This document shows positions 5,449 through 48,200 of a stretch of 64,000 nucleotides of DNA, in pieces. The stretch comes from a virus. The stretch covers positions 307 to 64,306 of IMG/VR virus record IMGVR_UViG_3300042890_003772; one strand, given 5' to 3'. The notes beneath the pieces are model-generated. The model worked only from the letters and a program-made list of their open reading frames with translations, had not been told where the DNA came from and searched no databases. The position numbers and the translations under genes are program-made. Each line of letters starts with the position of its first letter. The first letter of the stretch is position 1.

Positions 5449-6570
5449 TCAAATGGTATCTGCACTAAATTCAATATTTAGTACGTACTTTTTAAAGTAA
5501 TCAATATAGTTAACTTCTTTATGCCTAAATGCAGCAATCATTAAATGAAACAATGGATTATCTTTATGCTTTAAGCAAAAATCTTTAACTTCTAATCCAC
5601 CATCAATTACTACTGTAGCATCAACTGCAAGTGTAAGATCTCGTAATAAGTTAACCGCGCGGGTTTCAATAGCTTCTACTTTATTAAACAGTTCTGTATC
5701 ACCAATGCTGACACAATAAGCTTTAAAATCGTCTACTTTTTCATCTGCAACCATTTCCGCGATATTACGTTCAGTTGTAAATGTGCAGTTATGATGTAGT
5801 AAGTCGTACCAAGCACATTTCCATTTATATCGCTCACCTGCACTTGTTTCAAAAACATAGCCTTCAAAATTTTCAGCTGAGGCTAGCACATCTTTTAATT
5901 TTCCTAACCAATTTACATCATTAGTATCAACTGAAAATCTATCTACTAGGTTGATAGTACGAAATAATTTATTACATAGCTCAAGAAGCTCACTATAAGT
6001 CCAATACCTACCAGTAATATTCTCACGTACAGCTAATAATGTTAGCTTTACTTCATCGTATTTTAATACAATACGATTACTAGGTGCGGTATATTCAAAA
6101 ATTGGAGTAGCTTTAATTTCTTGAGTTAATAGATACTCACTTAATCGATATTCAGGAGACTCATCATTAAATATAGCGTTTACGTTCTGACTAATTTCAT
6201 TATCAAAACTCTTTTTAGTTTTAAAAACAATCTTATCATTAATGCGTACAGGTGAAATCATTGACCCATCACGCTTATCATAAGTTGATTGAATATCATT
6301 CCAGTCAATAACTTCTTCTTTTGTTTCAGGACGCTCGTTTACATTAAAGAATTTATGAAATGTTCTCGATGCAACATTACCTTCTGCGTCAAATGTGATA
6401 CCTCTACATTCACGAGCCCACTCTGCGTCTTCACCAGCAAATGTATCTCGATCTTGAAACATATAGCTAATTACTGTACAACCATTTTCATGTCTAACTA
6501 CGTTAATTTCAGACTTATCGCTGATATGTGGTAGTAAGTCGTTGATATTATTAATAATTGGAAAAGTCAT
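5449..6570 (-). CDS. rnlA: RNA ligase 1 (T4 gp63 / Rnl1 family)
   Basis: ECRGITFDAEGNV...HKFFNVNERP...DGSMISP...KIVFKTKKS is collinear with the T4 Rnl1 motifs ECRGIMFE...EKFFNLNENP...DGSLVST...EILFKSKGS. Confidence 0.8.
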   Translation of the reverse strand: MTFPIINNINDLLPHISDKSEINVVRHENGCTVISYMFQDRDTFAGEDAEWARECRGITFDAEGNVASRTFHKFFNVNERPETKEEVIDWNDIQSTYDKRDGSMISPVRINDKIVFKTKKSFDNEISQNVNAIFNDESPEYRLSEYLLTQEIKATPIFEYTAPSNRIVLKYDEVKLTLLAVRENITGRYWTYSELLELCNKLFRTINLVDRFSVDTNDVNWLGKLKDVLASAENFEGYVFETSAGERYKWKCAWYDLLHHNCTFTTERNIAEMVADEKVDDFKAYCVSIGDTELFNKVEAIETRAVNLLRDLTLAVDATVVIDGGLEVKDFCLKHKDNPLFHLMIAAFRHKEVNYIDYFKKYVLNIEFSADTI

Positions 6571-6609
6571 TTATGCACCTTTTGATTTAATTGATTGCTT
6601 TAAAATAAT

Positions 6610-6638
6610 ATTATAGTACAATTATAGTGTTAAGTCAA
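6610..6638 (-). promoter_or_regulatory. Consensus sigma70-type early promoter, TTGACT-N17-TATAAT
   Basis: The reverse complement reads ttaacTTGACTtaacactataattgtacTATAATattatttta, which would drive rnlA. Confidence 0.6.
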
Positions 6639-6946
6639 GTTAAATATTGTACTCTGCGATAATTCTTACGAACGTTACCTACCGTGTTCCACATGATAAG
6701 TCTTTTTGTCTCAAATACGACACATTGATGGTATAAATCATCTAAGTTATATTCAATACAGATGCACCCGTCCTCAGTAGTACAGGTACGTGTGATAGAT
6801 GCGTCTGTATACCGATCAAGCCATTGCAGTGCTCTAGCTCTCAGCGATTCATCATATAAATTAGTTAGATTATTAATATCGTCAATGTGTTGTTGCATTT
6901 GTATTCCCTTCAAATAACCTATATTCAATGCGAGATATTCCTTCAT
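6635..6946 (-). CDS. Hypothetical protein
   Basis: 103-aa ORF. Its 5' end overlaps the 3' end of the upstream kinase gene, and the true start may be the internal Met near 6898. Confidence 0.35.
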   Translation of the reverse strand: MKEYLALNIGYLKGIQMQQHIDDINNLTNLYDESLRARALQWLDRYTDASITRTCTTEDGCICIEYNLDDLYHQCVVFETKRLIMWNTVGNVRKNYRRVQYLT

Positions 6947-8003
6947 TATACATAGGTAGTGTAAACGATTTCATCATATGTAAGTATACATCATCACTTA
7001 TAGATTTACCAGCTTGACTTCTAATTTCATTGCGCCGTGCAAGTTCTGACATACCAGTTAAAAATAGTATGCACTCAACTCTATAATGTTTACCAAACTG
7101 ACCAATCCAACGACGTCTTGATTTTTTGCTCAAATTAGTCATATCGACAACTACGTTTGCATTAGTTGATTTAGCGGACTGAACTACTCTAGCAATTTCA
7201 TCATCGATAGCGGTTTTAACTTGCTTATCATTAGCTTGTAAGTGAAACGCTTCATTGTATGTAATGTTCATACGAGCTGCAATAGCTTCAAGCACGTTAT
7301 CTCTGGAGATAACAATTGTATCTGCAGGTAACGTTTCAACGTATGAAGATTTACCGCTACCAGGTAGACCACATAGTATAGTTAATCTATTTTTAGTAAT
7401 ATTAATATCAGGTTTATCAACTAACCGATCAACAATTGTTTTTGTGCGGTTAACTATTAATTCACCTAATTTAGTTCGAGCATCAGCACCTTTTGCAAAT
7501 CTACCGAGTGTGTCGCATCGAGTAATTCGACTAACATACGATAAAAACGTACGTTCACCTTCAAATATATTAAGAGCTTTTTCATCTAGCACAATGTCAT
7601 TATCTTCAATTAATACTAAATCAAATAGTAAACTGTGACCAGCTATAGTACGCAGAGTCATTATTTTATCTTCTGTTGACATATCTGTTCTATTTAATAT
7701 ATCAATCGCTAAAAACATGCTAATCGATTCATGTTGTACAAATCTAGCACGTGTTTTTTCTGGAATCTCGATACGAGCTGATGGTTTGCCGATATCATGT
7801 AGCAATGCAGCCCATTGTACAATATCATCTTCATTATATAATTCAGCTATTTTAGCCACCATAAGTGTATGAGTACTCACACGACCTTCTAGGTGATACG
7901 GGTTTAATGTAGTTGCATTAAAATGGTGATTACTGTTCTCCATATCACTCCACAATTTAGGGAATTCTATTTGCAACCACTCTACTTTTTGATTTGTGTC
8001 CAT
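6882..8003 (-). CDS. Bifunctional HD-domain phosphohydrolase / P-loop polynucleotide 5'-kinase (RNA end-healing enzyme)
   Basis: The N-terminal half has HD motifs (H...LLHDIGK). The C-terminal half has a Walker A motif (GLPGSGKSS) and a kinase-like region. It sits next to rnlA. The ATG at 8003 is preferred over the GTG at 8015. Confidence 0.6.
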   Translation of the reverse strand: MDTNQKVEWLQIEFPKLWSDMENSNHHFNATTLNPYHLEGRVSTHTLMVAKIAELYNEDDIVQWAALLHDIGKPSARIEIPEKTRARFVQHESISMFLAIDILNRTDMSTEDKIMTLRTIAGHSLLFDLVLIEDNDIVLDEKALNIFEGERTFLSYVSRITRCDTLGRFAKGADARTKLGELIVNRTKTIVDRLVDKPDINITKNRLTILCGLPGSGKSSYVETLPADTIVISRDNVLEAIAARMNITYNEAFHLQANDKQVKTAIDDEIARVVQSAKSTNANVVVDMTNLSKKSRRRWIGQFGKHYRVECILFLTGMSELARRNEIRSQAGKSISDDVYLHMMKSFTLPMYNEGISRIEYRLFEGNTNATTH

Positions 8004-8029
8004 AATAATCACCACGATAAAAAAATAAT

Positions 8030-8058
8030 ATTATAGTACACCTGCAATTATAAATCAA
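8030..8058 (-). promoter_or_regulatory. Sigma70-type early promoter, TTGATT-N17-TATAAT
   Basis: The reverse complement reads TTGATTtataattgcaggtgtacTATAATattattttt. It shares a 19-nt core with the rnlA promoter. Confidence 0.55.
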
Positions 8059-8121
8059 GTTATACGTGCATGTTATATGGAATAAATATATAATATACAC
8101 CTTAGATTTATGGAGCTATGT

Positions 8122-8376
8122 ATGCAATACGCTTTTAAGCACACAGTAACTGCTGTAAAATGGAATGGTAATAACTATCAAGCCATTTATGATATGACGG
8201 CTCAATTTAATTTAGAAAACACTCTTATATATGATGGTTCAAAATCATTATATGTAGGTGAAGAAGAGGCTGCGTTAGGTGAATACGTAGTTGTATGGCC
8301 TACTGTACCTGGTACTATTCAATCTGTGCTATACGACGAAGCATCATTTGAACATCAATTTGGAAAACTTCATTAA
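8122..8376 (+). CDS. Hypothetical protein
   Basis: ORF with GGAG 6 nt upstream of ATG 8122. Confidence 0.4.
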   Translation: MQYAFKHTVTAVKWNGNNYQAIYDMTAQFNLENTLIYDGSKSLYVGEEEAALGEYVVVWPTVPGTIQSVLYDEASFEHQFGKLH

Positions 8377-9101
8377 TATTTTCCATACCAATCAACTGGA
8401 GGAGTCTGCCCGCGTATAATATATTTACGTTCTGCAGATTTTAGACTATCAACCTGCTGCAAGCCAATAGGATTACGTATTGGACTAGTAAAGAATTGTA
8501 CTATAGCAGGCATTACAGTCGCCACCTCCTCATCTACACCTAGTATTTGCAACGGATAGTGTGCATTATTAAACACTTTTTGCATCTTTTCAATCGTTCT
8601 AGGTTTTGATTCGTGCGTATCTTTAATATACTCTGGTGGCACAAAGCGTCTACGTGATTCAGCCCGAGTTAATGATCGCTCTAATTCAGATTCTTTATAT
8701 AACATCATTACATCATAACCGTATTGACGTAGTCTACGCATACGCACGATAGTGCTATGAACATTAGATGCGGTAGTGTCAATAATAACTGGTAGCATAC
8801 TGGTTAGGTATAACTCAAGTTGTGATGACATTAACTCTTTAGTTCTATTTTGAATTGATACTGCTCCTGGAGCCTCAACTTCAGCGCTTGTACTAATAGG
8901 TACATCATGCTTCTTGCTCAAGTATTCATAAAATTTATCGTAATCTAATACGCGTGGTTTAATGCTATGTGATACAGTTAGTTCTTGAATAATATCTTTC
9001 ACGATTGTGCTTTTTCCACTAGCAGGAATACCACCTAAGAATAAGCACTTAAAAATACCTTTGTCGTAGATTCCTTCTGATAATATGTCATGCAATTTCA
9101 T
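8373..9101 (-). CDS. P-loop kinase-like protein with an N-terminal CTS-like signature (MKLHDILSEG)
   Basis: Walker A motif GGIPASGKST. Translationally coupled to the upstream ADP-ribosyltransferase gene (ATGA). Confidence 0.5.
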   Translation of the reverse strand: MKLHDILSEGIYDKGIFKCLFLGGIPASGKSTIVKDIIQELTVSHSIKPRVLDYDKFYEYLSKKHDVPISTSAEVEAPGAVSIQNRTKELMSSQLELYLTSMLPVIIDTTASNVHSTIVRMRRLRQYGYDVMMLYKESELERSLTRAESRRRFVPPEYIKDTHESKPRTIEKMQKVFNNAHYPLQILGVDEEVATVMPAIVQFFTSPIRNPIGLQQVDSLKSAERKYIIRGQTPPVDWYGKY

Positions 9102-9691
9102 GAAAGTGCCTCTTCTAAATGATCAAACCATAAGTCCATTGTGACCACGTAACAGTTATTAGCAATCATAACTTCACTACCATCTTCTAATGCTGCGTGG
9201 AGGTTCTTAGATATATATGTTGAAAGATATTGATCTAATTTTTGATAGAATTGTTGATCATATTTTTTTGCTGGATCTGCATCTTTACTAGATTCAAGCT
9301 TTGACACTGTATCGTACAAATCACCTACTTGAGGGCTCCACAAGTACTTTAATGGTCCAATAGGAAACAACACATATGCTTCACCATAAACTTCTGCAAC
9401 TTCCCAATCAGAGGTTGCAAAGATCGCATTACGGAATGGTAACCCAGCATGCTTAGTAAAGTAATCGTTAATATAATTATGAATCGTTATATTAGTATCT
9501 TTAGGACTTCTACTATCTAGTGATGGATGAATAACGGTCATTGGTGGTATATTGCTATCTTGTATTCCTCGAGATAATGGCACCCCAACGTTATTATACT
9601 CCGCAATAATTGGAGCACAATCACGTTTTAATATTGCTACAATTTCATCGATGCTATGATTATCATTATTAAGAATTTCATTTAGTTTCAT
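9098..9691 (-). CDS. ADP-ribosyltransferase, ModA/ModB/Alt-like, paralog 3
   Basis: The R (PLSRG), STS (IFATSDWE) and E (GSEVMIAN) motifs match T4 ModA (PLWRG, VVSASYD, EQEVMIP). N-terminus MKLNEIL. Confidence 0.55.
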   Translation of the reverse strand: MKLNEILNNDNHSIDEIVAILKRDCAPIIAEYNNVGVPLSRGIQDSNIPPMTVIHPSLDSRSPKDTNITIHNYINDYFTKHAGLPFRNAIFATSDWEVAEVYGEAYVLFPIGPLKYLWSPQVGDLYDTVSKLESSKDADPAKKYDQQFYQKLDQYLSTYISKNLHAALEDGSEVMIANNCYVVTMDLWFDHLEEALS

Positions 9692-10326
9692 TTTATTAAC
9701 TCCTGAACTACTTTTCCATAATCATAGATACTAACCATATAGCAATCATTTGCAAACATTATTTCGTGATCACTGGCAGTAGCTGCAAGTAAATCTTTAT
9801 TTGTATAGGTATTAATATATTGATTGAGTTTATCAAGCAGCAGCTTATTGTTGTAGTCACTAGCAGGTAAAGTACTGTCTAAACGATCCTCATCTGGATC
9901 AAACGCTGTACCATCTCCCAAGTTAGCAATTGTAGTGTCAACAACAGCAAACAGATCTTCTATATTAGGGCTCCAGATGAAATTTAATTCACCTACTGGG
10001 AACACTACGCTGACGGAACCATATCCAGCTGCACGTGGTTGATTACCTGTGGCAAATATTCCATTACGTAACGGAAAATGAAATTTTGTTTGAAACTCTT
10101 GATTTAAAAACTTATGTATTAATCTAGGCGTATCTAATGGAGTTCTATCTAATCTAGGTTTAATTAAGTTAATATGACCTGGATAGGCTTTACCGCTATT
10201 ACTACCTCTAAACAAGCAATCACCGTTATTTTGCTTTAGTATTTCAATATACGGTCCGCAATGCTGCTTAATAGTTTCAACAATATGTGATAAATCAGTT
10301 GCATCTATAACTTCATGTAATCTCAC
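9688..10326 (-). CDS. ADP-ribosyltransferase, ModA/ModB/Alt-like, paralog 2
   Basis: CLFRG, IFATGN and DHEIMFAN motifs. Paralogous to its two neighbours. Confidence 0.55.
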   Translation of the reverse strand: MRLHEVIDATDLSHIVETIKQHCGPYIEILKQNNGDCLFRGSNSGKAYPGHINLIKPRLDRTPLDTPRLIHKFLNQEFQTKFHFPLRNGIFATGNQPRAAGYGSVSVVFPVGELNFIWSPNIEDLFAVVDTTIANLGDGTAFDPDEDRLDSTLPASDYNNKLLLDKLNQYINTYTNKDLLAATASDHEIMFANDCYMVSIYDYGKVVQELIK

Positions 10327-10895
10327 GACATCACCGCATCTTTAATCATACCATAATTTTGAATCATAATACACTTATTGTTAAGCATAACTTCATGACC
10401 TGTTTGTATAGCTTTATCCAATTCATTATTTTGATACGCATCAGCTATGCTAGCAACAGCATTTATTAATGATTGTTTAGAGCTTTCAAGTGTCTCAAAG
10501 TCAAAGGTTTTATCCAATTGAACATATAAATCACTAATTTGTTTGCTCCAAATATAGTGCAATTCGCCAATTGGAAACACCGCATAAACCGGTCCGTAAT
10601 ACCGTGCATCATCATAACTGCTAGATGCAAAAACGCCATTGCGATATGGAAAACCAAATGCACGCTTGAACGATTGATTTAGTGCATCGTGTAGCACTCG
10701 AGGGGTATCAACCGGAACTCTATTTAAGTTAGGTTCTATTACATTAAAACCTTCAACGTTGGTAAATCTACTACCTTTATATCCACGAAATAATGGAGCA
10801 CCGTCAGTATGCTTTAATACTTCAATATAAGGAGCACATAACTGCTTTAATTTAGCAATATCTACATCTGGAACTGCGATTTCGTATAATTTCAT
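10323..10895 (-). CDS. ADP-ribosyltransferase, ModA/ModB/Alt-like, paralog 1
   Basis: PLFRG, VFASSSYD and GHEVMLNN motifs. N-terminus MKLYEI. Confidence 0.55.
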   Translation of the reverse strand: MKLYEIAVPDVDIAKLKQLCAPYIEVLKHTDGAPLFRGYKGSRFTNVEGFNVIEPNLNRVPVDTPRVLHDALNQSFKRAFGFPYRNGVFASSSYDDARYYGPVYAVFPIGELHYIWSKQISDLYVQLDKTFDFETLESSKQSLINAVASIADAYQNNELDKAIQTGHEVMLNNKCIMIQNYGMIKDAVMS

Positions 10896-10922: not shown

Positions 10923-10930
10923 TATTTATG
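10923..10930 (-). promoter_or_regulatory. Late-promoter-like box CATAAATA (minus strand)
   Basis: Lies 26 nt upstream of the paralog 1 ATG at 10895. Confidence 0.4.
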
Positions 10931-11513
10931 CACTGAATTCTAAATTAAAGTCCATATTTTTAGTAACATTTAATTCAATGTACATTAACATCATTGCAAC
11001 ATTTAACGTGTTAGTATTTGGTATTTTAGTTGACTTAATTTTTAATAATTGAACGCGTGGATCATACGCAATAATTGTTTTAAGTTCATCTTCAACCTGA
11101 ATCACTACTTCATCATCTAACGGCTCAAACAATAATTCAGGAATAATGGATCCAAACCCAGGCATCATTACTCGACTACCTTTTATTGTATTAATATGAT
11201 TTAGTATATTTCGTTCAACTAGACTAACATCAGTAAGGGTAAATGTATTATTACCGGGATTTTCAATATTATAATTTGCTGATATAGGTGATGTTAGTCC
11301 TTGCGTATTAGTAGCTGGAAACACACCTTTTTTAATTGTACCTGAATTAAAATCGATAGTAGAAAAACCTCTATATAGTGTACCGTTATAATTAAGGTTA
11401 TTAGTACCATTCAATATACTAGTTGATTTGGTATTAGTACCTTTTACTGTTGGTGTCGCTATAAGCGATGAAAGATCGATACCCAGTGTGTTAACTGTTT
11501 GCCGTTGTGCCAT
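10926..11513 (-). CDS. gp25: Baseplate wedge protein, gp25/GPW family
   Basis: IKGSRVMMPGFGSIIPELLFEPLDDEV...YDPRV matches the T4 gp25 motif KGSRPFDPEFGCDLSDQLFE...YEPRI. Confidence 0.7.
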   Translation of the reverse strand: MAQRQTVNTLGIDLSSLIATPTVKGTNTKSTSILNGTNNLNYNGTLYRGFSTIDFNSGTIKKGVFPATNTQGLTSPISANYNIENPGNNTFTLTDVSLVERNILNHINTIKGSRVMMPGFGSIIPELLFEPLDDEVVIQVEDELKTIIAYDPRVQLLKIKSTKIPNTNTLNVAMMLMYIELNVTKNMDFNLEFSA

Positions 11514-14500
11514 TACCTACTCCAATACTTATTTCTAGTTTTATGAGTCCGTCCAATTTCAGCCTCATTATTTGTATATTTCTGAGTCATGTCGGTATTA
11601 GATTTATTATCTGACCTAATCCATGGTTCGTGTTTTGGTATTCTCAATGGATATGCGGCTATTAATGCAGCTGATGATGATGCAGCTCTAGGTCCATTCA
11701 TTTTTGTTAATATCGCTGCCCTATCTTGATCAGGTATTTTATCTAACAAGCTCATCATTGTTTCGTTTGGCATACTCATTAAGAAGTTATTAAGCTCCTC
11801 ATCTGGGATACGTGCAAGATCAGCTCCCAATAATTCAGGTGACATATTTGAGAATACATCAATTAAATCAGCAAGTGGTGCACGATTAATTAAATCAGTA
11901 AAATCATTAATTGGTATATCTTTCAACATACTACCAACATCATCTGGCTCCATACCATTTAGTAGTGATGTTACGTCTTTATCATTAAAGTCGGATAATA
12001 CTCCAGTTGCATCAGGACCACTTAACGTTGGAAGCACCGCACTCATTTGCGTAACTTCATCATTTGTCATACTATTTAGCGCTTCAGTTGCATCCATACT
12101 TGCAGCAGATGTAAATACTGCAACTTTATCCTTGTCACTTAAACTTGTTAAAAATTTAGATACTTGTGGTAGTACAACACCGGTATCTGGCACCATGGTT
12201 AGCAGTTGACCGCGTTGATCTGGTGACATTTGCTCCATAAGATTATTGACATCTTCAGGTGGTAAATCAGCAATTTTTGCGCCAATATCTGCACCAGTCA
12301 TGCTATTTGAAAAGGTGCTTTGAAAATTCCCGGGAATAATTTTTGATGTATCAAATCGTTGAACATCGGTACTATCTACGGTTAATTTGTCGGTCGGTAT
12401 ATACGACATTGCTTCACCTAATGCGGATGGCTCCATATTAGCCAGTACACTATTAATCTCGTCTGGTGATCTAGTTGCTAAAATTCTACCAAAATTAGGA
12501 TACTTAAGCGCGTTATCAGGAGTAACAGTGTTTTGATCTACTGCAACCCCGTTTGCATCTACAGTAGATTTTTCTGTATTTGCACGTGCAATTAACTCGC
12601 CTGCGAGCGCAGGATGTAAATTACATACCGTATTAGGATCTATTTTTTCTAATAATGCTGCTAATTTATCTGACTGCATATTTGATAACATGTCACCTAA
12701 TTTAGCACTTTGCATATCGTTTAATATGTTAGTATCTGGTATATTATCTACCACATCGTTAATTTGATCCGATGGAATTTTTGATAATATATTACCTAAT
12801 TGAGGTGACGGTAATTGAGATAAAATACCATCTAAGTCTTCTGGTGGTAATGATTGCATTATACCGCCAGCTGCAGCTCCACTAATCTTATCTAGAATAC
12901 CAGGTAGCATATCAGCTGGTATATTTGATGATACTTGCCCAAACATATCTGCACCAACACTACTAAGCAGATTACTAACAACCTCATCTGACATTTCTGA
13001 TAACGCACGACCAAGATCTTCACTAGGCATATTTGCCATAGTGTCGCTAATACTATCACTTGAAATAGATCCCAATACCTGAGCTAGTTGTGCAGATGTT
13101 AGGTTAGAAGCAGCACTATCACCTGACGTATCACTTGAAACTGGTGTTACAGTTGGATCAACTAAAACTCCATCGACTAATACCGGTGTAACGTCTGCAC
13201 CAGTTGAACCAACTGAGCCTGCAACACCTAGAGCTGCTTTAGTCTTACTTGCTACAGCTTGTGGTGCTACTATACCACTGGTTGCACTAATAGCGGCACT
13301 ACCTAGTATTATTGAACCACTTCTAATAGTTAGTGATGATTTATTAGTAATGTTAAATTTAGTTGTAACCGCATCAAGTGTATTGCCACTTAATACTAGA
13401 TTATTTGTACCGGTAACTGTTGTGCGTTTACCTTCAGCTTTTAACGCTGTAGTACCTTTAAGGTTAAGCACCTTACCTTGAATGTAGCAGTTTGATTTTG
13501 CAATAGTAGTTATCTTATCGCTAGTAGTGTTAATTTCTTTAGTGCTACGTAAGTTAGTTTTTTGTGAACGTACATAATAATTTGTTTTTGCAGTAGAGGT
13601 TATAACGTCGCTACTGTTACTGATGACATGATTAGATGATAGTACGATATCATGATTAGCATTCATGTGTATATCTTCTGCGTGCATTCTAATAGACTGC
13701 TTTGCATTTAAATTAATATCTGCATCAGAATTAATAGATATTGATTGGCTAGCGTAGATATCAATAGATCCATCTTGATCAAGTTCAATCCAGTTATTAC
13801 CTTCAGCTGTGTTAATGTATATTCTTTCATTAGTATCATCAATTATAATATTATGTCCACAAGAAGATCTAATACGTATTCTACAATTATCAGCACTATC
13901 ATCCATTGACCATGAATGAAAGCCTGGTGTAGTCATTGAATATATCTGACTATCGTAGTTGTCACCATTGGCGGTAAATTTACGATCTGGATTAATTCTA
14001 GATCGTTTATATCCAGACGTGGTATCAGCAACTTGTGATTCTGTATACTTGTTTTTTATATATTGATCACTTAATCCAGTTACCCCTGGATCTGTAACAC
14101 GTGATACGTATTCAGGACGATTAGTATCTGTGCCAAACGCTTTTGTTATGTTAGTTGATAATGGTTGAATAGGTTTTTCGGTAGATGATAGTGGGCCAGA
14201 ATATTTACCATCTTTATCTTTAATATGTCTACCATGAGGCATAGTATGTTCCATGAATCTTGGAGGCATACATCCAAAGAAGACTCTGCTAGTTGGATCA
14301 CCATTTAAGCACATAATAACAGCTTCAGAACCGACTTTTGGTAGTGCCCACATGCCATACGATGTAGATCCTTCCGTTACAGAATCATCTGGACCTCTAT
14401 TAATATTTGTAGATATCATTCCACCAAATGGAGTAATATAGTTGCACCACGGTAAGTTTTCGTATGGCGTACCTGGTAAGTCTCCGTATGCCTGACAATA

Positions 14501-14599
14501 TACTTTTATTCTACCTCGACCTTGCGGGTCGTTAGTATCTACTATTAACCCAGTAGATACCACTGTATATGGATTTACGTTTTGATTTGGACCGTACAT
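11513..14599 (-). CDS. gp5: Baseplate central spike, gp5-like (OB fold plus beta-helix) with a C-terminal helical-repeat extension
   Basis: The N-terminus DTNDPQGRGRIKVY...LPWC is a gp5/VgrG-type OB fold. It is followed by a beta-helix rich in Ser, Thr and Asn. The C-terminal third is about 25 degenerate LxxMxPxDL repeats. Confidence 0.6.
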   Translation of the reverse strand: MYGPNQNVNPYTVVSTGLIVDTNDPQGRGRIKVYCQAYGDLPGTPYENLPWCNYITPFGGMISTNINRGPDDSVTEGSTSYGMWALPKVGSEAVIMCLNGDPTSRVFFGCMPPRFMEHTMPHGRHIKDKDGKYSGPLSSTEKPIQPLSTNITKAFGTDTNRPEYVSRVTDPGVTGLSDQYIKNKYTESQVADTTSGYKRSRINPDRKFTANGDNYDSQIYSMTTPGFHSWSMDDSADNCRIRIRSSCGHNIIIDDTNERIYINTAEGNNWIELDQDGSIDIYASQSISINSDADINLNAKQSIRMHAEDIHMNANHDIVLSSNHVISNSSDVITSTAKTNYYVRSQKTNLRSTKEINTTSDKITTIAKSNCYIQGKVLNLKGTTALKAEGKRTTVTGTNNLVLSGNTLDAVTTKFNITNKSSLTIRSGSIILGSAAISATSGIVAPQAVASKTKAALGVAGSVGSTGADVTPVLVDGVLVDPTVTPVSSDTSGDSAASNLTSAQLAQVLGSISSDSISDTMANMPSEDLGRALSEMSDEVVSNLLSSVGADMFGQVSSNIPADMLPGILDKISGAAAGGIMQSLPPEDLDGILSQLPSPQLGNILSKIPSDQINDVVDNIPDTNILNDMQSAKLGDMLSNMQSDKLAALLEKIDPNTVCNLHPALAGELIARANTEKSTVDANGVAVDQNTVTPDNALKYPNFGRILATRSPDEINSVLANMEPSALGEAMSYIPTDKLTVDSTDVQRFDTSKIIPGNFQSTFSNSMTGADIGAKIADLPPEDVNNLMEQMSPDQRGQLLTMVPDTGVVLPQVSKFLTSLSDKDKVAVFTSAASMDATEALNSMTNDEVTQMSAVLPTLSGPDATGVLSDFNDKDVTSLLNGMEPDDVGSMLKDIPINDFTDLINRAPLADLIDVFSNMSPELLGADLARIPDEELNNFLMSMPNETMMSLLDKIPDQDRAAILTKMNGPRAASSSAALIAAYPLRIPKHEPWIRSDNKSNTDMTQKYTNNEAEIGRTHKTRNKYWSR

Positions 14600-14625: not shown

Positions 14626-15141
14626 TTACCATTTACTACAAATATTGTTAAATTTTCGATAATCGTACACGTATGGTGTATCGCATACCATATAAAATTT
14701 AATATACTGTAAGTTACCAATTTTTACAGTATCATGATAATGAATAAAATTTGGTGCGCTAGGAAATATTAGTAGCTCACCCATATTTGGTGCATGTTTA
14801 AACTTAAACGTCTTAAATATTAATTCGCCACCATACACATCAGTAGATATATCAAATGGTGTTGTATTGTTGTATGTGCTGATAGGTATGTATCCAGTAA
14901 AATCGTATTTGTTTATACGGGTCCATTTTCTATTAAAATATACACTATTATCACAAATTGGCCGTACGATTACATCACCAAAATTTGCAGGTACTAATTC
15001 AGCTATTTTGACATTATAATACTTTTCAACAACAGCAATCACGCTATTAGCTTTATGAGTGGTGAATTCCAACACATTATCAGATTGACATTTTAGTGGT
15101 GGTATAAAACCGTCTATTAAGATGATAGGAGGGCTAAGCAC
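14626..15141 (-). CDS. Hypothetical protein (possible baseplate component)
   Basis: 171-aa ORF directly upstream of the spike gene. Confidence 0.4.
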   Translation of the reverse strand: MLSPPIILIDGFIPPLKCQSDNVLEFTTHKANSVIAVVEKYYNVKIAELVPANFGDVIVRPICDNSVYFNRKWTRINKYDFTGYIPISTYNNTTPFDISTDVYGGELIFKTFKFKHAPNMGELLIFPSAPNFIHYHDTVKIGNLQYIKFYMVCDTPYVYDYRKFNNICSKW

Positions 15142-15785
15142 TGTGATATTAAGCCTTCAAGTTTAGGGTCGATTGTGCTATTAGTATGTTTTAACAAATT
15201 TACACCAGCTAAGAAGTCATCTAATCCAGTACGATCGTTAAGATTAACTTGAACATTTTTAATAACTTCATTACCTAATTTGCAAGTAACTGTTATTACT
15301 GGACGTTCTTCAACACCATTATCTGCGGTTTCAATTTGTTGATGACCAGATAAATTAAATTTGTATTTTGAATTACCGTATTCAAACTCAACCGTACTAT
15401 CAGTTAATTTAATGTTTTTTGCATTTAAGCTGCAGCATGCAGCACCGGTATCAACTTTACTTTTAATTGGTTGATTGTTATTTAATCCCATAATAGTTAT
15501 ATCAACGTGCTGCCCAATCGTCGACTCTAATATTATTGTTTTACTAAGGGTATATGCATTATCTATAAAATTAGAGACACCACAAACATATTGCCCTTGA
15601 TATTCATAGATATGAAACACTGGAATATTATTTGAGATATCATCTAATGATGGGCAATGCGTGTATAACAGGGTTGCATCTTCACATGTAACAGTTTGAG
15701 TAAATGGCCAGGTAGTGCTAAATGTTTCTAGTAATTTATCTGTTTCTTGTGGTATGTTATTTTCCGATAAAATCAAGGTGGTCAT
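15117..15785 (-). CDS. Hypothetical protein (possible baseplate component)
   Basis: 222-aa ORF overlapping the next ORF in an operon. Confidence 0.4.
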   Translation of the reverse strand: MTTLILSENNIPQETDKLLETFSTTWPFTQTVTCEDATLLYTHCPSLDDISNNIPVFHIYEYQGQYVCGVSNFIDNAYTLSKTIILESTIGQHVDITIMGLNNNQPIKSKVDTGAACCSLNAKNIKLTDSTVEFEYGNSKYKFNLSGHQQIETADNGVEERPVITVTCKLGNEVIKNVQVNLNDRTGLDDFLAGVNLLKHTNSTIDPKLEGLISQCLALLSS

Positions 15786-39288: not shown

Positions 39289-42200
39289 ATGTTAGCAGAT
39301 GGTTTACAGTTCCTAGAAGGGTCGGTCAATACTAATCTTGTTTTGCCCGCCTTGTCAGAAAGCGGTAGAAATGCATTAGTTAATGTTAATGTTGGTGAAG
39401 TAGTATTTCAGACGACCGGTCAAAAAGGTATTTACGTCTATAATGGTACTAGCTGGCAATATGGGCTATCTATCGCATTAGATAGCACAAATCCAACTAC
39501 ATTATTTGGATATGGAATTACAGATGCAGTTCGTGCAAATGCCGCCATTACCGCAGGTACTGGAACTAAAATCACATATGATAATAAGGGGCTTGTAACA
39601 GGGTCTACTACATTAGACATTAGTGATATTCCAAACCTACCAACCTCTAAATTAACTGGACAAATAACTATAGGTCAATTACCTGACCTAGGATCAACTG
39701 CAAGCACATATGTAAAAGTATATGTTGATGCAACAGGTCGTGTAGTTGGTGGTGAAACTACTGCCACATTAGCTACATTAGGTATTACTGATGCAATTCA
39801 AGCTAATACCGCAATTACAGCCGGTACCGGCACAAAAATAACTTACGATTCAAAAGGTTTAGTAATATCATCTGATGTATTAACCGCGTTAGATATACCA
39901 GATATAGAGACCAGTAAATTACTAGGTAGAATTACACCGGAACAATTACCATTGCTCGGTGATTCTGTTGCTGGGTACAGCAGTGTATCGATAGATGCAA
40001 CTGGTCGTGTGGTTGGAGGTAGTAATCCAACTACATTAGGTGGCTATGGTATTATCGATGCTGTGTTAGCTAATTCACAGATTGTAGGTAGCACAGGCAC
40101 TAAAATTACCTATGATTACAAAGGGTTAGTTACATCATCAACGCAGTTAATTGCGAGTGATATTCCATCGTTAGATGCAAGTAAAATTACCACGGGTAGA
40201 TTTTCAGCTAATTTCTTACCATTTATTGAGACATTAACACCTGGTACGTATACTAAAGTAACTGTTGATAGTACTGGTCGAGTAATTGCATGTGAAACAC
40301 CTACTACTATAGATGAGTATGGTATTACTGATGCAATGCGAGCTAATCCCGCAATTACACCAGGTACTGGTACAAAAATTACATATGATGCGCAAGGGTT
40401 AATCACAGATGCTGCAGTCTTAGCACCAACCGATATTCCAAGCTTACCAGCATCAAAAATTGTATCAGGGGTATTAAGTTCAAGTTTATTGCCAAACTCA
40501 GGTGTAACAGCTGGTGATTACTACAAAGTAACTGCAGATATACATGGTCGTATCACGGCAGGTGCTAGTACATTAGATATATCTGATATTACCGACTTAT
40601 CTACGGTATTAGCAAGTAAAGCTACTCCTGCAAACATCACTGACGCTATTGATGCAGTGTATGGTGGTGTAGGTGTACCTGGAAACACACTTAAAAAGAT
40701 TTACGATATTGCAGTTGCTAGCAACCACGAGATAACAGTCGCTGATACAAATGCAAGAATTGGAACATACGTTTCATCATTACCTACCAACATCTTTGTT
40801 GTTAACGATGGTGACGGTGAATGGGCGTTATATAAAGCGTTAGCAACCGGCCTAGCCACTAACAATAACGTTATAAAATTATCAGATCCTAGTATATTAA
40901 ACACCGCGAATGGTTATATACCTGAAGATCGTACAAATAAAGATACTGATCCAACATTAGCAGCTAATAGTGATATTAAATATCCATCACAAAAAGCAAT
41001 AAAAGCGTATGCCGATACAAAGGTACCTAAAAATGCGTTAATTACAGCTGGTACAGGAGCAAAGCTTACCTACAATCAATTTGGTTTGGTAACCGGAACT
41101 GGTACATTACTAGCTAGTGATATTCCAAACCTGGATGCAAGTAAAATTACATCCGGTATCTTACCAACATCAGTATTACCCACCTCAGGTGCTAACCCAT
41201 CACTATCATACGTAAAAGTAAACGTTGATACATATGGCCGGGTAATATCTGGATCAACAGAGTTAGCAGCAGGTAATATACCGTCATTAGATGCAAGTAA
41301 AATTACATCTGGTAAATTACTAGTTAGTGTAATGCCAAACTTAGGTACACCTGTATCAACGTACACCAAGGTACGTATTGATAGTACTGGTCGTGTGGTA
41401 TCTGGCTCAAATCCAACAGCACTCGCTGATTACGGAATAACAGACGCTGTTACAGCTAACCCAACCATTGCAGCTGGCGCTGGGATTAAGATAAGTTATG
41501 ATAGTAAAGGGTTAGTTACAGGCTCAACATCATTAGTAGCCAACGATATTCCAAACATATCCGCTGCAAAAATTACCTCAGGTGTTTTAAATAGCTCCGT
41601 ATTACCTACATCAGGTATTGCTGAAGGTAATTATAAATCAGTTACCGTAGATTCACATGGTCGAGTAATATCTGGTACAAACACATTAACATTTGATGAT
41701 GTATCTGGATTAACATCTGCGATTACAAACGCAGCATCTAATGCAAGTGTATCAACAGCAATTAATACAGCAATTTCTAACTTACGAGCTGATGTACCTT
41801 CTCAAGGAAGTACATTAAAAGGCTTGTACGACATGGTGCTGGCGAGCAACCATGAGCTTAACGCTGCAACAGTTGTAGCTAGAGATGCATTAGAAATTGT
41901 ATCGTTACCAACTAACGTATTTGTATTAGACGATGGTGACGGGCAATGGGCGTTATATAAAGCATTATATTCAGACTCACAGTTTAACGATTACCTCATT
42001 ACGCATCCAACAGCTGTTGCTAGCGATAGATATGTAAAGGTATCTGATCAAACATCATTGAACGCATCACTGGGTACATCTACTGAGGTTAAAACTAATA
42101 AATCAACAAATATTGAGCTACTTGATGGATTGTCAGCAAGTAACGTTAAATATCCAACACAGCTTGCAGTAAAAACATACGTTGATAACCAAATACAAAC

Positions 42201-45200
42201 AGTTGCAACTGTAGTTGCCGATTCATTAACAGATATTATTACAACATCTGCACTACCAGAAGGTGCTGATTTAGCTCTTAATAAATTAGTATTAGATAAT
42301 GATCCAAGATTATCTGGTAATAGTGCACCGATGTCTCATCAACATCCAATATCAGATATTATTGATTTAGCTACAATACTTGACGGTAAAGTTAACGCAA
42401 TCAGTATACCAGCTGGTAGCGGTCCATATATTACATATAATAATCAAGGTGTTGTAACTGCATCTAGACAACTAACCTCATTAGACCTACCGTTAGTCCC
42501 AGTAAATAAAATTGACGGTGTATTAACATCAAGTCAGTTACCAACTAATACTGTATATACTGATGTTAGCGGTACGATTGCAGTTAGTAAATTACCAAGT
42601 ACTGTTTTGTTATCAACAAACCTACCTGGTGATATAGTAACAACTAGTACTGGTGGTGTAATTGCTCAAGCTAAGTTACCAACTACATTAGTATACGTTG
42701 ATGGAACTGGTAAAATACCTGAAAGCTTAATACCGGCATCGTCTCAAGTATCGTTAATTGATACCATTACAGTTGCCGATTTAATTGAATTAAACGCTAA
42801 CACAACCGCGGTAGTTGGTACAATCGCAATTGTTGTTGATACTAGCGAAACATATGTACAAACAACCAATGGTTGGACCAAATTAAATGTACCGTCAGGA
42901 ACTGTATCATCTATTAATGGTCGCTCAGGTGTAATTAGTAAAATACTACCAGCTGATATCGATGGAGATTTTGTAAACTCTATTAATGGCCGTACTGGTA
43001 TAATCGATAAAATTCATACATCAGATTTAGATGGTAATTTTATTGAATCTATTAATGGTAAATCTGGGGTTATTAGTAAAATTGAACCAGCAGATATTAC
43101 TGGGTTATTTGATGATACATTAGCTACAGTAACATTATTAGCTGGGGTGTTACCAGAATTTACCGGTGATGTGTATTCAGAGATTGGTACAAACGTTTTA
43201 ACTTTAAATGATGTTCCAGGATTAGATACAGAAGTATTCTACTCATCAATTAAAGTTAACAGCAAAGGTATTGTTGTTGAAGGTAGTGAGGTTGGTAACG
43301 GTGGTTCAATAATATCATTTGAACAAACTGATGCACGATACGTACTTAAATCATACTTAGGACTAAAAGATACTGCTGGTGGTGTTGCTGGACTAAACAG
43401 TTCAGGTGTATTACCGCTAACTGTATTGCCAGCATTCACTGGAGACCTTACATCACCAGCTGGTTCAAATGTATTAACATTAAAAACTATTGCTGGTTTA
43501 AACAGTACTAATACATTCTCATCTGTTACTGTAAACCGTAAAGGTTTAGTAACTGGTGGTTCAACTCAAATTGTATATAATAAAGCACAAGCCGACGCAT
43601 TATTCTTATCTATTAATGACGCTGGTGCAAAAAATACAGCTAATGGATATGTCGGATTAAACGCTGATGCGGTGATGTATGCAGCTCAATTACCTGGGTT
43701 TGTTGGTGATGTAACTGCACCAATTGGATCACGTACATTAACATTGAATACTATACCAGGTGTTACACCTGGTGCAAGTTACTCTACTGTTGTTGTAAAT
43801 AGTAAAGGTATTGTAACATCAGGTACATTAGCTTCAACAGCTGCGGGTGATATTGCTGCAACATATGTAACAAAAGTATCATTAGGTAATAGAAACGCAG
43901 CGAACGGATACCTAGGATTAAATTCAAGTGCAAAAATAGACTCACAATACTTACCGTTATTATTCTTAAACAATAGATTTATTGTAAACACAATAGCTGA
44001 ACGTAATGCAATCACAGATGCACATATGGGTGATATTGCTATCGTTAATGGTTCGGTAGGTAAATGTTATATCTTAAATGCAGCAACCTCTGCTAATCCT
44101 GATAATTGGGTAGAATTGGTAACATCTAATAACGTTTACCAAGTAAACGGTAAAGCTGGTCTAGTAGAACTAGTATTAAGTGATATTAATGGTACACTTG
44201 ATATCAGTAAACTACCTATTCGTACTGCTGGTGATGTAATTACCGATCCAACAACGCGTGAATTAAGATTAAAAGATGTTGGTGTTAACGCACTAGCTAG
44301 TGGAGCAACTGCAACATATAAATCGGTAACTGTTAACAGTAAAGGTTTAGTAACGGGTGGATCAAATCCAACTACATTAGCCGGATACGGCATTACTGAC
44401 GCAATTAGTACACGTAGATTACCACTGCACGATGATGGTGAGGCACCATTCTTGACACTAGGTTTCGAAGGTACCATCGACCCAACCATGGTACAGAGTG
44501 ATATATTCACTGTAGACGAATTACCGGTTGATGGAGTAATTAACAAATTATATAGAATAGTTGGCACTAATAAGTCATACGTTTGGGACGGTACTGCATT
44601 TGTACAAATGACTACAACTGATGCAAGCTTGCTAAATGTTGGGACATTACCTGCAGCGAGATTACCAGCATTTACTGGTGATGCAACTGTACCGCTTGGT
44701 ACGAGTGCAATAACCTTAGCTAATACTGGTGTAACAGCTGGAACATACACACAGCTAACTGTTGATACTAAAGGTCGAGTAATATCAGCTACACAAGCAC
44801 CACCACCAGACGCATATACTAGATCACAAGCGGATGCAAAATATGTAACGCAAACATCGTTAGGTCTTAGAAATACCGCAAACGGGTACGTTGGGTTAGA
44901 TAGTAGCAATAAAATTGATTCCAACTTATTGCCATCGATATCAATAAGTGATATTTTCCCGGTAAACACATTAGCTGAACGTGATGCATTAACTACAACA
45001 CATATTGGTGATATGGCAGTTGTAGGTGGTGAGGTTAACGTTAACTATATCTTATCTGGTGTTAATCCTCGTGTGTGGACACCAATGGCTAACCCAATGG
45101 GTGGAGTCGTTGCAGTTAACGGTTCAACTGGATCAATAACATTAACGTTAGATAACATTTCTGGATCACTACAAAACTCCGCACTACCAGCGTTTGTCGG

Positions 45201-48200
45201 GGATATTACATCTGTAGCTGGATCTAATACGCTAACAATTGATAAAATTCGTGGAATAACAGTTGATGCAGATTTTAATGCAACTACATTACCTACAGAT
45301 GGATATTCATTAACGTATATGGCGAGTAGCGGTAAAGCTACTTGGAGACCAACCGGTACAGATGCAACTAACTTAATAACTGGTATTTTACCTGTTGGTA
45401 GATTACCTGCATTAACAGGTGACATCACAACGGTGGTGGGACACAATGTTGCAACAGTTGGTAAATTAAACGGTATTACATTAGATACCGGGTTTACTAC
45501 CGTTACACCACCAACTAATGGTTACGTGTTAACATATGCATCAGTTGGATCAAAAGCTACTTGGAAAGCATTAGATGCAAGTAAAGTTACTGTTGGTACG
45601 TTACCAGTAGCAAGACTACCGGCGTTAACAGGTACAGATGTAACAGCTGATGCTGGAACGGGGGTATTAAAGTTATCAACAACTGGTGTTGCTGCAGGCA
45701 CATATACTTCAGTTACAGTTAACACTAAAGGTCGAGTTACAGCTGGAACGGTAATACCAATCGTAGACGCATATTCAAAACTTGTATCTGATAACAAATA
45801 TGTTGCAAAATCAGTATTAGGTAACAGAAATACTGCTAATGGTTATGTTGGGTTAAATAGTGATAACAAAATGAACGTAGTTCATTTACCCGCTATTACC
45901 ATGAATATTATATTTGCTGTAGCTACATTAGCGCAAAGAGATGCACTAACAACTCAGCATATCGGTGATGTTGCTATTGTTGGTGGTACAGTTAATCGCA
46001 CATACATCTTATCAGCTGTTTCACCTAAAGTTTGGATTGAATTGCTGAACCCATTAGGTGGAGTATTATCACTCAATGGAGCTACAGGTGTTGTAAACTT
46101 AACACTAGATAATATTGAAGGTACATTACACTCAGGTGCATTACCAGCATTTACTGGCGATGTAACGTCAATGGCTGGTGATAATGTACTAGAATTAGCT
46201 GCAACTGGAACAGCTGGTACATACTATAAAGTTACTACTGATGTTAAAGGACGTGTAACATCAGGTGCAACAACACTTGCTGTTAGTGACTTACCAGAGC
46301 TACCATGGAGCAAAGTATCAGTCGATATGCCAACAACCTTGACTGGGTTTGGCATCACTGATGCGATTAATACATCAAGACTGCAAGCTGGTGATAATGG
46401 TGAAGATAAACTAGCTACCGTTGGTAGTAATGGTGCAATTGCTCCTAGTTTACTACCAGCGTTTACTGGTGATGATATTACATCAGCAGTTGGTTCGAGC
46501 GTATTAGCGTTAACCGAAACAGGTGTAACTGCAGGTACTTATACTGCAGTTACAGTAGATGTTAAAGGTCGTGTAACATCCGGCTCGTATGCTCCACCAC
46601 CAGATGCATATACAAAAACGGAAACTGACGGTAAGTATGTACTTAAAACAACTCTAGGTACAAGAAATGCTGCAAATGGCTGGGTTGGGTTAGATAGCAA
46701 TAGTAAAATTAGCGCAAGTTTATTGCCATCACTTGCTATTAACTCAATATATCCAGTTACCACAATAATAGCTCGTGACGCATTAACTACTACACATTTA
46801 GGTGATGTTGCGATTGTTGGTGGATCGGTAAATGTTAACTATATGTTAACATCGGTAACTCCAACAAGAGTATGGACACCAATTTCAAATCCATTAGGTA
46901 GTGTAACTTCCATCAATGGTTCAACAGGTGTAGTTACATTAGACCTATCAAATATAACTGGGACATTACGCCTCGACTCATTGCCAACATTTACTGGTGA
47001 TGTATCGCTATTACCTGAAACAAGCATACTTAAAGTTTTAAGCTTGAATGGTATAGTATTAGATACTACACATAATGAAGCTGTACTGCCAAACAACGGT
47101 AATGTATTAACTTACTCGTCAGCTGATAGTAAAGCTATGTGGCAGTCATTAAGTGCAAATCATATAGCTACAGGTACGTTATCTGCATCTGTAATGCCTG
47201 CATTTAATGGTGATGCCATTTCAACAACAGGTAACGCAAACCTAACAGTTGTTGCTTTAAACGGTATAGCATTAGATCGTGAATTTGATCCTTTCTCGCA
47301 CCCAACTAATAATCATGTACTTTCATATGATACTGCTGGAGTTAAAGCTACATGGAAAGCGTTAAGTGCGAGTAATATATTAACTGGTACATTGCCAGCT
47401 GGTAGATTACCGGAACTTATAGGTGATGTTACTTCAAACGCTGGATCTAATACATTACTATTAACTGATACTGGTGTTGTTGCAGGTACTTACAGTAGTG
47501 TAACCGTAGATACAAAAGGTCGAGTCGTATCAGGTACAGCTGTACCCAACACTGATGCATATTCAAAAATTGTCTCAGATAACAAATATGTTGCAAAAGT
47601 AACATTAGGTGGTCGTAATGAGATTAACGGATTCGTTGGATTAAATAGTGAACGTAAAATTGATGCTGTATATTTACCAGATATCACATTAAACGACATC
47701 GCTGTTGTATCAACCATAGTTGAACGAGATGCACTAACTACTAATCATATCGGTGATATCGCAATAGTTGGTGGTTCTGTTAATAAAACATTTATTTTAT
47801 CATCTACTTCACCACGCACATGGACAGAGTTAGTAAATCCATTAGGCGGAGTAACATCGTTAAATGGTCAAACAGGCAATGTAAATTTAACGTTAAGTAA
47901 TATTAACGGTATATTAGATACATCAGCATTACCAATGTTTACAGGTGATGTTACTTCACTTGAAGGTAGTAACGTATTAACTTTAGCAACTACTGGTGCA
48001 GCCGGTACCTATTATAAAGTAACTACAGATACAAAAGGTAGAGTAACAGCCGGTGTAGCCGCATTAGTTAGCAGTGATATCCCACCACTTAGCTGGAGTA
48101 AGGTTGTATATGGTAGACCGACAACACTAAGTGGCTACGGTATTACCAACGCAATTACTTCTGATAGATTACCGGTAGGTGATGATGGTGTTAGTAAGAT

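Follow-up and report, generated by a model that had tools for sequence, protein, structure and literature searches.

The central-spike gene and its helical-repeat array

We analyzed a 64,000-nucleotide (nt) stretch of viral DNA, positions 307 to 64,306 of IMG/VR record IMGVR_UViG_3300042890_003772 (here called the window), in which one open reading frame (ORF) codes for the central spike of a phage baseplate and carries a long array of short helical repeats between its needle and a conserved C-terminal end-piece. The parts of this gene and its neighbors are listed in Table 1, and residue numbers refer to the spike protein. The N terminus matched the Pfam family Phage_base_V (PF04717) at 35.5 bits (cutoff, 23.8; E = 1.3e-8), and PHROG 13211, "baseplate hub subunit and tail lysozyme," aligned with amino acids (aa) 15 to 375. 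AlphaFold2 (AF2) placed beta strands at aa 249 to 437, and a profile of the spike family run against the PDB matched the beta-helix of the VgrG structure 8gra at 2.9e-7. DUF2345, DUF3540, and T6SS_TssI matched the beta-helix weakly, with DUF2345 and TssI under their cutoffs. Judged from these matches, the product is a baseplate spike of the gp5/VgrG type, presumably trimeric like others of this class. The N-terminal half (aa 1 to 473; 13250..14599, minus strand) also showed a weak hydrophobic periodicity at lag 8 (z = 2.6), far below the lag-12 signal of the array described below and compatible with octapeptide repeats of the kind seen in the T4 gp5 beta-helix.

Among cultured phages, tblastn matched aa 3 to 420 of the spike alone, in XacN1 (36%), RsoM2USA, Xoo-sp13, PA5oct, Atu_ph07, and other jumbo phages; a nucleotide search of the same phages with the 11-kb spike region returned no match. 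A copy with 1,026 of 1,028 residues identical was found on IMG/VR contig UViG_3300044984_002789, and 17 full-length metagenomic homolog clusters (31 to 92% identity) all carried both PF04717 and PF03448. The linker between needle and array had a predicted local distance difference test score (pLDDT) of <50 over aa 434 to 501, and its size among spike homologs ranged from about 12 to 65 aa.

TABLE 1 Parts of the central-spike gene and its neighbors in the window
Feature	Position (nt)	Strand	Basis or content
gp25/gpW-like baseplate wedge gene	10926..11513	-	PHROGs 261 and 43, "baseplate wedge subunit"; GPW_gp25 on orthologs
Central-spike gene	11513..14599	-	ORF listing; 1,028 codons plus stop
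Conserved basic end-piece ("HEPW tail module"), aa 969-1028, core 981-1028	11516..11695	-	Homolog alignment
Array block C, aa 769-968	11696..12295	-	17 short helices; best MgtE_N match (aa 883-969; slices of 45.6 and 51 bits)
Irregular array middle, aa 674-768	12296..12580	-	Small beta-hairpin, few helices
Array block A, aa 496-673	12581..13114	-	16 short helices, 11 contiguous 12-residue units; MgtE_N slices of 44 and 30 bits
Ser/Thr/Val/Gly-rich flexible linker, aa ~451-495	13115..13249	-	Low pLDDT, composition
Beta-helix needle, aa ~231-450	13250..13909	-	AF2 strands; VgrG 8gra profile match
Oligonucleotide/oligosaccharide-binding (OB)-fold domain and conserved connector, aa 1-230	13910..14599	-	Phage_base_V, PHROG 13211, tblastn
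171-aa protein of unassigned function, upstream of spike	14626..15141	-	ORF
222-aa retropepsin-like aspartic protease, upstream of spike	15117..15785	-	Pfam Zn_protease/RimB-like, 32.9 bits (cutoff, 27)

The array spans ~470 residues (aa ~496 to 968; 11696..13114). Pfam MgtE_N (PF03448) matched it at 118 bits (cutoff, 25.9; E = 3.1e-34) in six stretches, and each of five separate 125-aa slices matched the same family (44, 30, 25, 45.6, and 51 bits), four of them above the gathering cutoff and the fifth at 25.0. Against the PDB, the family profile reached MgtE N domains at 7e-5 to 1e-3 (2oux, 2yvy, and 2yvx at 7e-5 to 7e-4), and its matches to FliG were at about 7e-3. The profile was needed for this: when the array was searched against PDB sequences as a single query, the one match was due to chance (HIV p24; E = 0.38). 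Pfam FliG_C matched at 26.0 bits (cutoff, 23.3) but was overlain by the stronger MgtE_N match, and FliG_M stayed under its threshold (17.1 bits; cutoff, 25).

The repeat unit has the consensus [MLI]-[PS]-[SP]-[DE]-x-L-G-x-[VIL]-L-S-x. Hydrophobic autocorrelation over aa 496 to 968 gave z values of 11.1, 8.7, and 7.6 at lags 12, 24, and 36 (1,000 shuffles), and no comparable periodicity at these lags was seen in the N-terminal half of the spike by the same test. A hidden Markov model of 12-residue units was too weak for delimiting the repeats, and a position matrix, shuffles, and autocorrelation were used instead. The matrix found 19 units, 18 of them inside the array, compared with 0.5 ± 0.7 in 500 shuffles, a count that is somewhat circular because the matrix was trained on the array's own units. 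Within the irregular middle, AF2 strands lay at aa 675 to 690 and 748 to 768 with lower pLDDT (57 to 71); this stretch holds the array's most conserved nonrepeat positions (P735, P756, F763, and M767), followed by D771.

From a 16-sequence alignment, AF2 predicted 37 helices of 4 to 11 residues over aa 500 to 968 with a pLDDT of 70 to 92, which argues that the array is not disordered, and a submodel of aa 771 to 975 was all-helical (mean pLDDT, 89). In a fold search, the top PDB matches of the submodel were the MgtE cytoplasmic domains 8gpv and 2oux (probability, 1.0; E = 1e-3 to 4e-3). The full-length model found generic ARM/HEAT solenoids alone, at a root mean square deviation (rmsd) of about 20 Å, a result judged uninformative. 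Family matches and model together predict an acidic alpha-solenoid of 12-residue helix-turn units of the MgtE_N/FliG type. The ratio of nonsynonymous to synonymous substitution rates (dN/dS), measured against a 92%-identical homolog with dS of about 1.2 and hence with synonymous sites near saturation, was 0.045 for the array, 0.021 for the OB-fold region, 0.039 for the beta-helix, and highest, at 0.125, for the linker (aa 451 to 515). The array is a folded domain under purifying selection. Its recent origin by repeat expansion was rejected because the spike ORF contains no DNA-level tandem repeat beyond a trivial 9-nt one. No second copy of the array was found in any other ORF of the window.

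An initial annotation, made from the sequence alone, had described a gp5-like spike with an OB fold and a beta-helix followed by about 25 MgtE-N/FliG-like repeats at 11840 to 13050 (residues 517 to 920). The spike and repeat families are both borne out by the matches given above. The interval lies inside the array, but the real array is wider, and the last of the four peptides that were quoted as examples (aa 521 to 536, 580 to 597, 638 to 655, and 943 to 967, all present) already lies beyond its end. The repeats are real, but their number depends on the definition (19 clear 12-mers or 37 helices); likewise, the 12-residue period stands, but the run of repeats is interrupted by the irregular middle. 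Low-complexity matches and a disordered model had been named as counterevidence, and the searches and the model returned a Pfam family and ordered helices.

Three identities that the domain family might suggest were rejected. For an MgtE transporter, TIGR00400 scored 56.6 bits (cutoff, 232.75) over model positions 25 to 110 only, Pfam found no CBS or MgtE transmembrane domain, and the spike has no strongly hydrophobic window (no 19-residue window exceeds a mean Kyte-Doolittle value of 1.44). The array shares with the MgtE N domain (PF03448; 2yvx, 2oux, and 8gpv) its sequence family, its best fold match, and an acidic superhelix of short helices, but it has ~37 helices versus ~10 in MgtE and is joined to no CBS or transmembrane domains. 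The FliG rotor protein was excluded by the lack of a FliG_N match, by the subthreshold FliG_M score, and by the absence of the FliG N/M/C architecture. The flagellar E-ring proteins MotE, FlgY, and FlbB (COG3334) are 170 to 260 aa long and consist of an N-terminal signal peptide or transmembrane segment, a long helix, and a single MgtE_N head at the C terminus (PMC13023049); this layout is absent from the spike, whose ~37-helix array is internal to a 1,028-aa protein starting with an OB fold. What the spike has in common with E-ring proteins and FliG is the Pfam domain, known as a protein-binding head, and weak matches to FliG_C, FliG_M, and FliG structures. The JGI automatic names "Mg/Co/Ni transporter MgtE" and "flagellar motility protein MotE" on homologs are therefore wrong, being domain-level misnamings.

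MgtE_N-type tandem arrays of the form LPxxxLxxxL were also seen in unrelated proteins (P0057, P0059, P0050, and P0053). Array-like proteins include a protein with a signal peptide (P0059), a protein with a planctomycete cytochrome c domain, and a eukaryote-like SH3/sorbin protein. From its sequence distribution, the MgtE_N-type repeat is a widely reused solenoid building block, beyond Mg2+ transport or flagella.

A conserved end-piece and the origin of the array

The initial annotation had called the array C-terminal. This did not hold: a conserved end-piece of 45 to 55 aa follows, and the array is an internal insertion. Comparison with related spikes exposed this end-piece, which had been overlooked. 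Its pattern is A..YPLRIPKHEPWIRS...Y....IG....RNKYWSR, with a near-invariant core of ~45 residues, RIPxHEPWxR...RNxYWxR. Among 15 aligned full-length homologs, it was the best-conserved part of the C-terminal half, with R986, P988, H990, E991, P992, W993, R995, R1022, N1023, and W1026 invariant. No Pfam, PHROG, or NCBIfam family corresponds to it, and the HEPW motif was not found in other ORFs of the window. A PAAR identity was tried and rejected: the window tail had no Pfam match, Pfam was empty for all but one free homolog, and P0112 had no NCBIfam or PHROG match.

A protein search with a tail profile gave small free proteins alone, and pattern scans of IMG/VR revealed other architectures. 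The end-piece occurs in four settings. It forms the C terminus of array-bearing spikes (about 10 in IMG/VR) and of short spikes without an array, which were 570 to 670 aa long in the protein search and numbered about 60 in IMG/VR (390 to 604 aa). It is also a free gene of 83 to 123 aa (at least 14 in IMG/VR, 107 to 123 aa), which lay between a spike ORF (523 to 914 aa, often with SLT_3) and a gp25 ORF in all 13 loci with enough flanking sequence. Finally, it forms the C terminus of XacN1 ORF322, after an M23 domain and a Pro-rich linker; Xoo-sp13, CM1, and RAS14 also match. The ORF322 gene (L001:8730-9569, plus strand) is annotated "M23 family peptidase," and its end-piece reads …LAVWTNRMPMHEPWPR…ERNPFWRR. 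The order spike, end-piece, gp25 was kept in every locus examined. One apparent free "array plus tail" gene (P0049) was rejected as a spike truncated at a contig end.

These comparisons show, at the sequence level, the end-piece as a separable module that is always either the spike's own C terminus or the product of the next gene, and this pattern of gene fusion and fission suggests that it is functionally tied to the spike. Because the M23 domain of ORF322 is joined to a spike end-piece, the peptidase is suggested to be a virion-borne enzyme associated with the spike and not a lysis enzyme. Other than M23 and the MgtE_N array, no cargo was found beside the end-piece in the IMG/VR pattern scans.

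The place of the array in the spike can be compared with that of cell wall hydrolases in known phages. In T4 gp5, the lysozyme lies between the OB fold and the beta-helix, and gp5.4, a separate protein of the PAAR type, caps the tip of the spike. Like gp5, the window spike begins with an OB fold, continues into a beta-helix needle that is presumably trimeric, and is a hub component of the baseplate (gp5 structures were weak PDB matches to a short homolog). It differs in having no lysozyme between the OB fold and beta-helix and a helical, nonenzymatic domain after the beta-helix, and the position downstream of the spike is taken by the unrelated HEPW module. The XacN1 spike, ORF321, carries an SLT_3 lytic transglycosylase after its beta-helix, and the M23 peptidase that bears the HEPW module is encoded by the next gene; in the window, both hydrolases are absent and the HEPW module is fused to the spike via the array. 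No lysozyme, SLT, or peptidase family was found in the window spike by Pfam at E ≤ 1, and no homologs of the XacN1 SLT or M23 enzymes were found anywhere in the 64-kb window; a related contig has a separate T4-type lysozyme gene. Passengers vary by lineage: some spikes have none, and others have SLT_3, the MgtE_N array, or an M23 domain that is part of the end-piece protein. By these alignments, the array is shown to occupy the position where cultured relatives have peptidoglycan hydrolases. The initial annotation was accordingly right that the spike lacks a lysozyme; its phrase "instead of a lysozyme" applies to SLT_3 and M23 of the relatives, after the beta-helix, and not to the T4 position.

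In a neighbor-joining tree of the N-terminal 293 columns, the array-bearing spikes (about 20 metagenomic proteins) formed one clade nested among the short spikes with fused tails, and spikes with a separate end-piece gene (XacN1 and L005) were the sister group. Since relatives carry the same end-piece without the array, the array reads as an insertion between beta-helix and end-piece, and since its bearers form one nested clade, the simplest history shown by the sequences is that an MgtE_N-type array entered the linker of a beta-helix/linker/end-piece spike once. One subgroup of the array-bearing spikes (P0005 to P0009, P0011, and P0016) has gained ~190 further aa within the array (alignment columns ~1008 to 1215). 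This Gly/Ala/Leu/Met-rich segment is moderately hydrophobic, with a mean Kyte-Doolittle value of up to 1.8 over 19 residues; it resembles glycine-zipper or tape-measure-like membrane-active segments and is absent from the window protein.

Full-text literature searches found no paper that ties MgtE-type domains to a phage spike or baseplate, and a search combining PAAR, jumbo phage, and central spike returned nothing relevant. We found no earlier report of an MgtE_N-type passenger on a central spike, and the modular end-piece is previously unnoticed.

Genome setting and neighboring genes

The gp25-like gene lies directly downstream of the spike gene, its start overlapping the spike stop codon, and the order spike, gp25 was the same in all relatives examined. 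Other products encoded in the window are a gp21-like prohead protease, topoisomerase II subunits, and a T4-type major head protein that shares 62% identity with its XacN1 counterpart. Together with the spike and gp25 matches, these identify the source phage, by sequence, as an uncultured jumbo myovirus related to the XacN1 group. With this group (XacN1 ORF321/ORF322, Xoo-sp13, CM1, and RAS14) it shares the spike N terminus (36 to 38% identical), the capsid protein (61 to 62%), the gene order spike, HEPW-module gene, gp25, and the HEPW module itself.

Upstream of the spike, the product of the 222-aa protease ORF also matched RloA-like NCBIfam models under their cutoffs. The pair of the 171-aa gene and the retropepsin-like protease gene also precedes fused-tail spikes in L007 and in the P0007 contig. 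By phmmer, it was not detected beside the spikes of XacN1 or L005, in which the end-piece has its own gene; this comparison covers few loci (three versus two). The protease might cut the multimodule spike at its linkers.

After gp25, the window holds three tandem paralogous ORFs (9098..10895, minus strand; 197, 212, and 190 aa), each starting MKL/MRL..EI; the 190-aa paralog matched PHROGs 11975 and 15932, both of unknown function, and the 197-aa paralog had no Pfam match. Most relatives (L005, L006, L007, and the P0007 contig) have instead a DUF8360 baseplate protein of ~1,000 aa at this place, which points to a rearranged baseplate module in the window phage and L002. Elsewhere in the window, a giant ORF of 3,461 aa (39289..49674, plus strand) had no Pfam domain at E ≤ 1e-3; giant ORFs of 2,774 to 3,209 aa adjoin the baseplate genes in relatives L005 to L007. 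An RNA-repair-like cluster (5449..9101, minus strand) contains a T4 RnlA-type RNA ligase (PHROG 562; 1.9e-64) and two P-loop kinase-like ORFs matching polynucleotide-kinase and ATPase PHROGs; the ortholog of the second has Zeta_toxin/AAA_33 Pfam matches.

Proposed position and possible roles of the array

The initial annotation had proposed that the array may act as an adaptor for other baseplate proteins or as a periplasmic interaction domain, and the observations fit either of these candidate roles. On balance, we favor the explanation that the spike bears the solenoid as a noncatalytic binding platform near its tip. The array is tethered at both ends, to the beta-helix by the flexible linker of 12 to 65 aa and to the end-piece by a few residues. 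In the short spikes L017 (390 aa) and L036 (412 aa), 10 to 15 residues separate the end of the beta-helix from the end-piece, and because the shortest spikes leave so little room, the end-piece is most likely located at the distal end of the beta-helix or close to it. With the end-piece at the tip, the three solenoid copies of the trimer would be looped out around the needle tip. Tail contraction would drive them into the outer membrane and periplasm, where they could bind a host envelope protein or another virion protein, in the manner of the MgtE_N heads of MotE, FlgY, and FlbB, whose ARM-like PF03448 heads bind tetratricopeptide repeat (TPR) partners in the periplasm (PMC13023049). Repeats of the MgtE_N type are likewise present in some proteins that have a signal peptide (P0059) or an extracytoplasmic region.

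The array may be the phage counterpart of the passenger domains that "evolved" VgrG and specialized PAAR proteins carry in type VI secretion systems (T6SSs). The analogy is architectural: a passenger is attached beyond the beta-helix or tip via flexible linkers and varies by lineage, being an enzyme in some and a nonenzymatic domain in others. It differs in that the window phage has a virion and not a T6SS and in that the end-piece is not a PAAR domain. A candidate role of the end-piece is that it may cap the blunt end of the beta-helix as PAAR proteins do. The end-piece possibly resembles the apex of P2 gpV and phi92 gp138, as a small conserved element at the distal end of the beta-helix with the invariant H990 beside E991, and three copies of H990 in a trimer could form an apex site as in P2 gpV; a metal site of H990/E991 at the spike apex is a conjecture. 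In contrast to those apex domains, the HEPW module hangs on a flexible linker and may also be encoded as a protein of its own, and similarity to them was not found. Carried further along the same analogy, HEPW would be a hitherto unrecognized non-PAAR tip module of XacN1-type jumbo phages with a cargo slot that is empty or holds a hydrolase or a solenoid, and the solenoid would be a nonenzymatic effector or adaptor injected into the periplasm, where it might dock host envelope proteins much as the MotE, FlgY, and FlbB heads dock TPR scaffolds; we offer this fuller version only tentatively and think it somewhat doubtful.

Several observations weigh against a platform at the tip. The tip placement, although most likely, is drawn from linker lengths and nothing else, and many short spikes have Pro/Ala/Ser-rich linkers of 35 to 55 aa, a length that would let the end-piece reach back to the baseplate. 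In the AF2 monomer model, the end-piece has a pLDDT of <50. The submodel superposed on the MgtE N domain only locally (TM-score, 0.25 to 0.30; rmsd, 8 to 10 Å), and designed armadillo and Pumilio proteins scored almost as well in the fold search. The acidity of the array comes largely from the helix N-cap motif (P-x-D/E) and need not be functional. The cargo slot is a generalization, because only two kinds of cargo are documented beside the end-piece.

The same long linkers bear on an arrangement in which the end-piece attaches to the hub, gp25, or wedge at the spike base and the solenoid runs back along the needle as a scaffold or adaptor for other baseplate proteins. This corresponds to the adaptor role in the initial annotation. 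If extended, linkers of 35 to 55 aa approach the length of the beta-helix, and we estimate that the 37-helix solenoid and a 200-residue beta-helix are similar in length; alpha-solenoids are well-known scaffolds, and the end-piece gene always abuts gp25. That adjacency is no argument for contact, since the order spike, gp25, gp6 is universal (V-W-J in phage P2). The 10 to 15 residues left in the shortest spikes also speak against folding back, and we consider such an adaptor rather unlikely.

Alternatively, three solenoids could pack as a rod that lengthens the needle, with the end-piece as its cap, for use on a thicker envelope. Array length does differ by lineage (array-bearing spikes are now 936 to 1,154 aa long), and the aligned homologs have few invariant columns across the array, a low conservation that would suit a spacer. 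A disordered linker of 12 to 65 aa, however, would decouple such a rod from the needle. The low dN/dS between close relatives points to strong constraint, and the conserved nonrepeat motif at aa 735 to 771 suggests a specific site. A purely mechanical extension is, in our judgment, improbable.

The composition of the array raises a further alternative, in which it binds Mg2+ or Ca2+ and either strips the cations that bridge lipopolysaccharide or senses cations as a trigger. Residues 516 to 975 have an isoelectric point of 4.05 (68 Asp/Glu versus 27 Lys/Arg; net charge, about -41), and every 50-residue window from aa 451 to 950 has a negative net charge; homology to the MgtE N domain would fit as well. 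The acidic residues, however, lie mostly at repeat positions 4 and 5, the helix N-cap, which suggests a structural role. The Mg2+ sites of MgtE are formed jointly with CBS domains, and the spike has none. We regard cation binding as quite improbable.

Very unlikely, in turn, is a host-mimic effector, that is, an array captured from a host FliG, MotE, or MgtE gene that would target their partners, such as the TPR scaffolds of the flagellar motor. The membership of the domain family and the periplasmic TPR binding of the MotE, FlgY, and FlbB heads (PMC13023049) would be in keeping with capture. An exhaustive HMMER search of 1.84 billion representative proteins, however, gave only 51 array matches at E ≤ 1e-3, so that the array is rare, and the best nonspike matches were unrelated multirepeat proteins 20 to 34% identical; one viral model in BFVD matched the array at the same threshold. 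The array is not close to any bacterial FliG, MgtE, or MotE, in line with the subthreshold FliG_M and TIGR00400 scores. Finally, the biased composition (Leu, Asp, Ser, Ala, Asn, and Pro) and the lack of any matching PHROG family for the array might suggest that it is an acidic filler of low complexity or without order, or that it arose as an artifact of assembly or gene calling. Both ideas can be dismissed almost entirely given the pLDDT, the MgtE_N scores above cutoff in four of five slices, the dN/dS of the array, and the recurrence of the uninterrupted ORF across numerous independent contigs and samples.

The usual description of the central spike of a contractile phage is a needle that may or may not bear a cell wall hydrolase. 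The array-bearing clade has a large noncatalytic solenoid, putatively protein binding, where hydrolases usually sit, and the end-piece behaves as a portable attachment point beside the spike, whether fused, free, or bearing an M23 peptidase. The public automatic names MgtE and MotE on these virion proteins should be corrected. If the placement at the tip and the reading of the array as cargo are true, phage spikes would diversify their passengers as T6SS spikes do, the arrangement would be a phage equivalent of VgrG/PAAR cargo loading, and its modules would be candidate handles for engineering phage or tailocin delivery to the periplasm.

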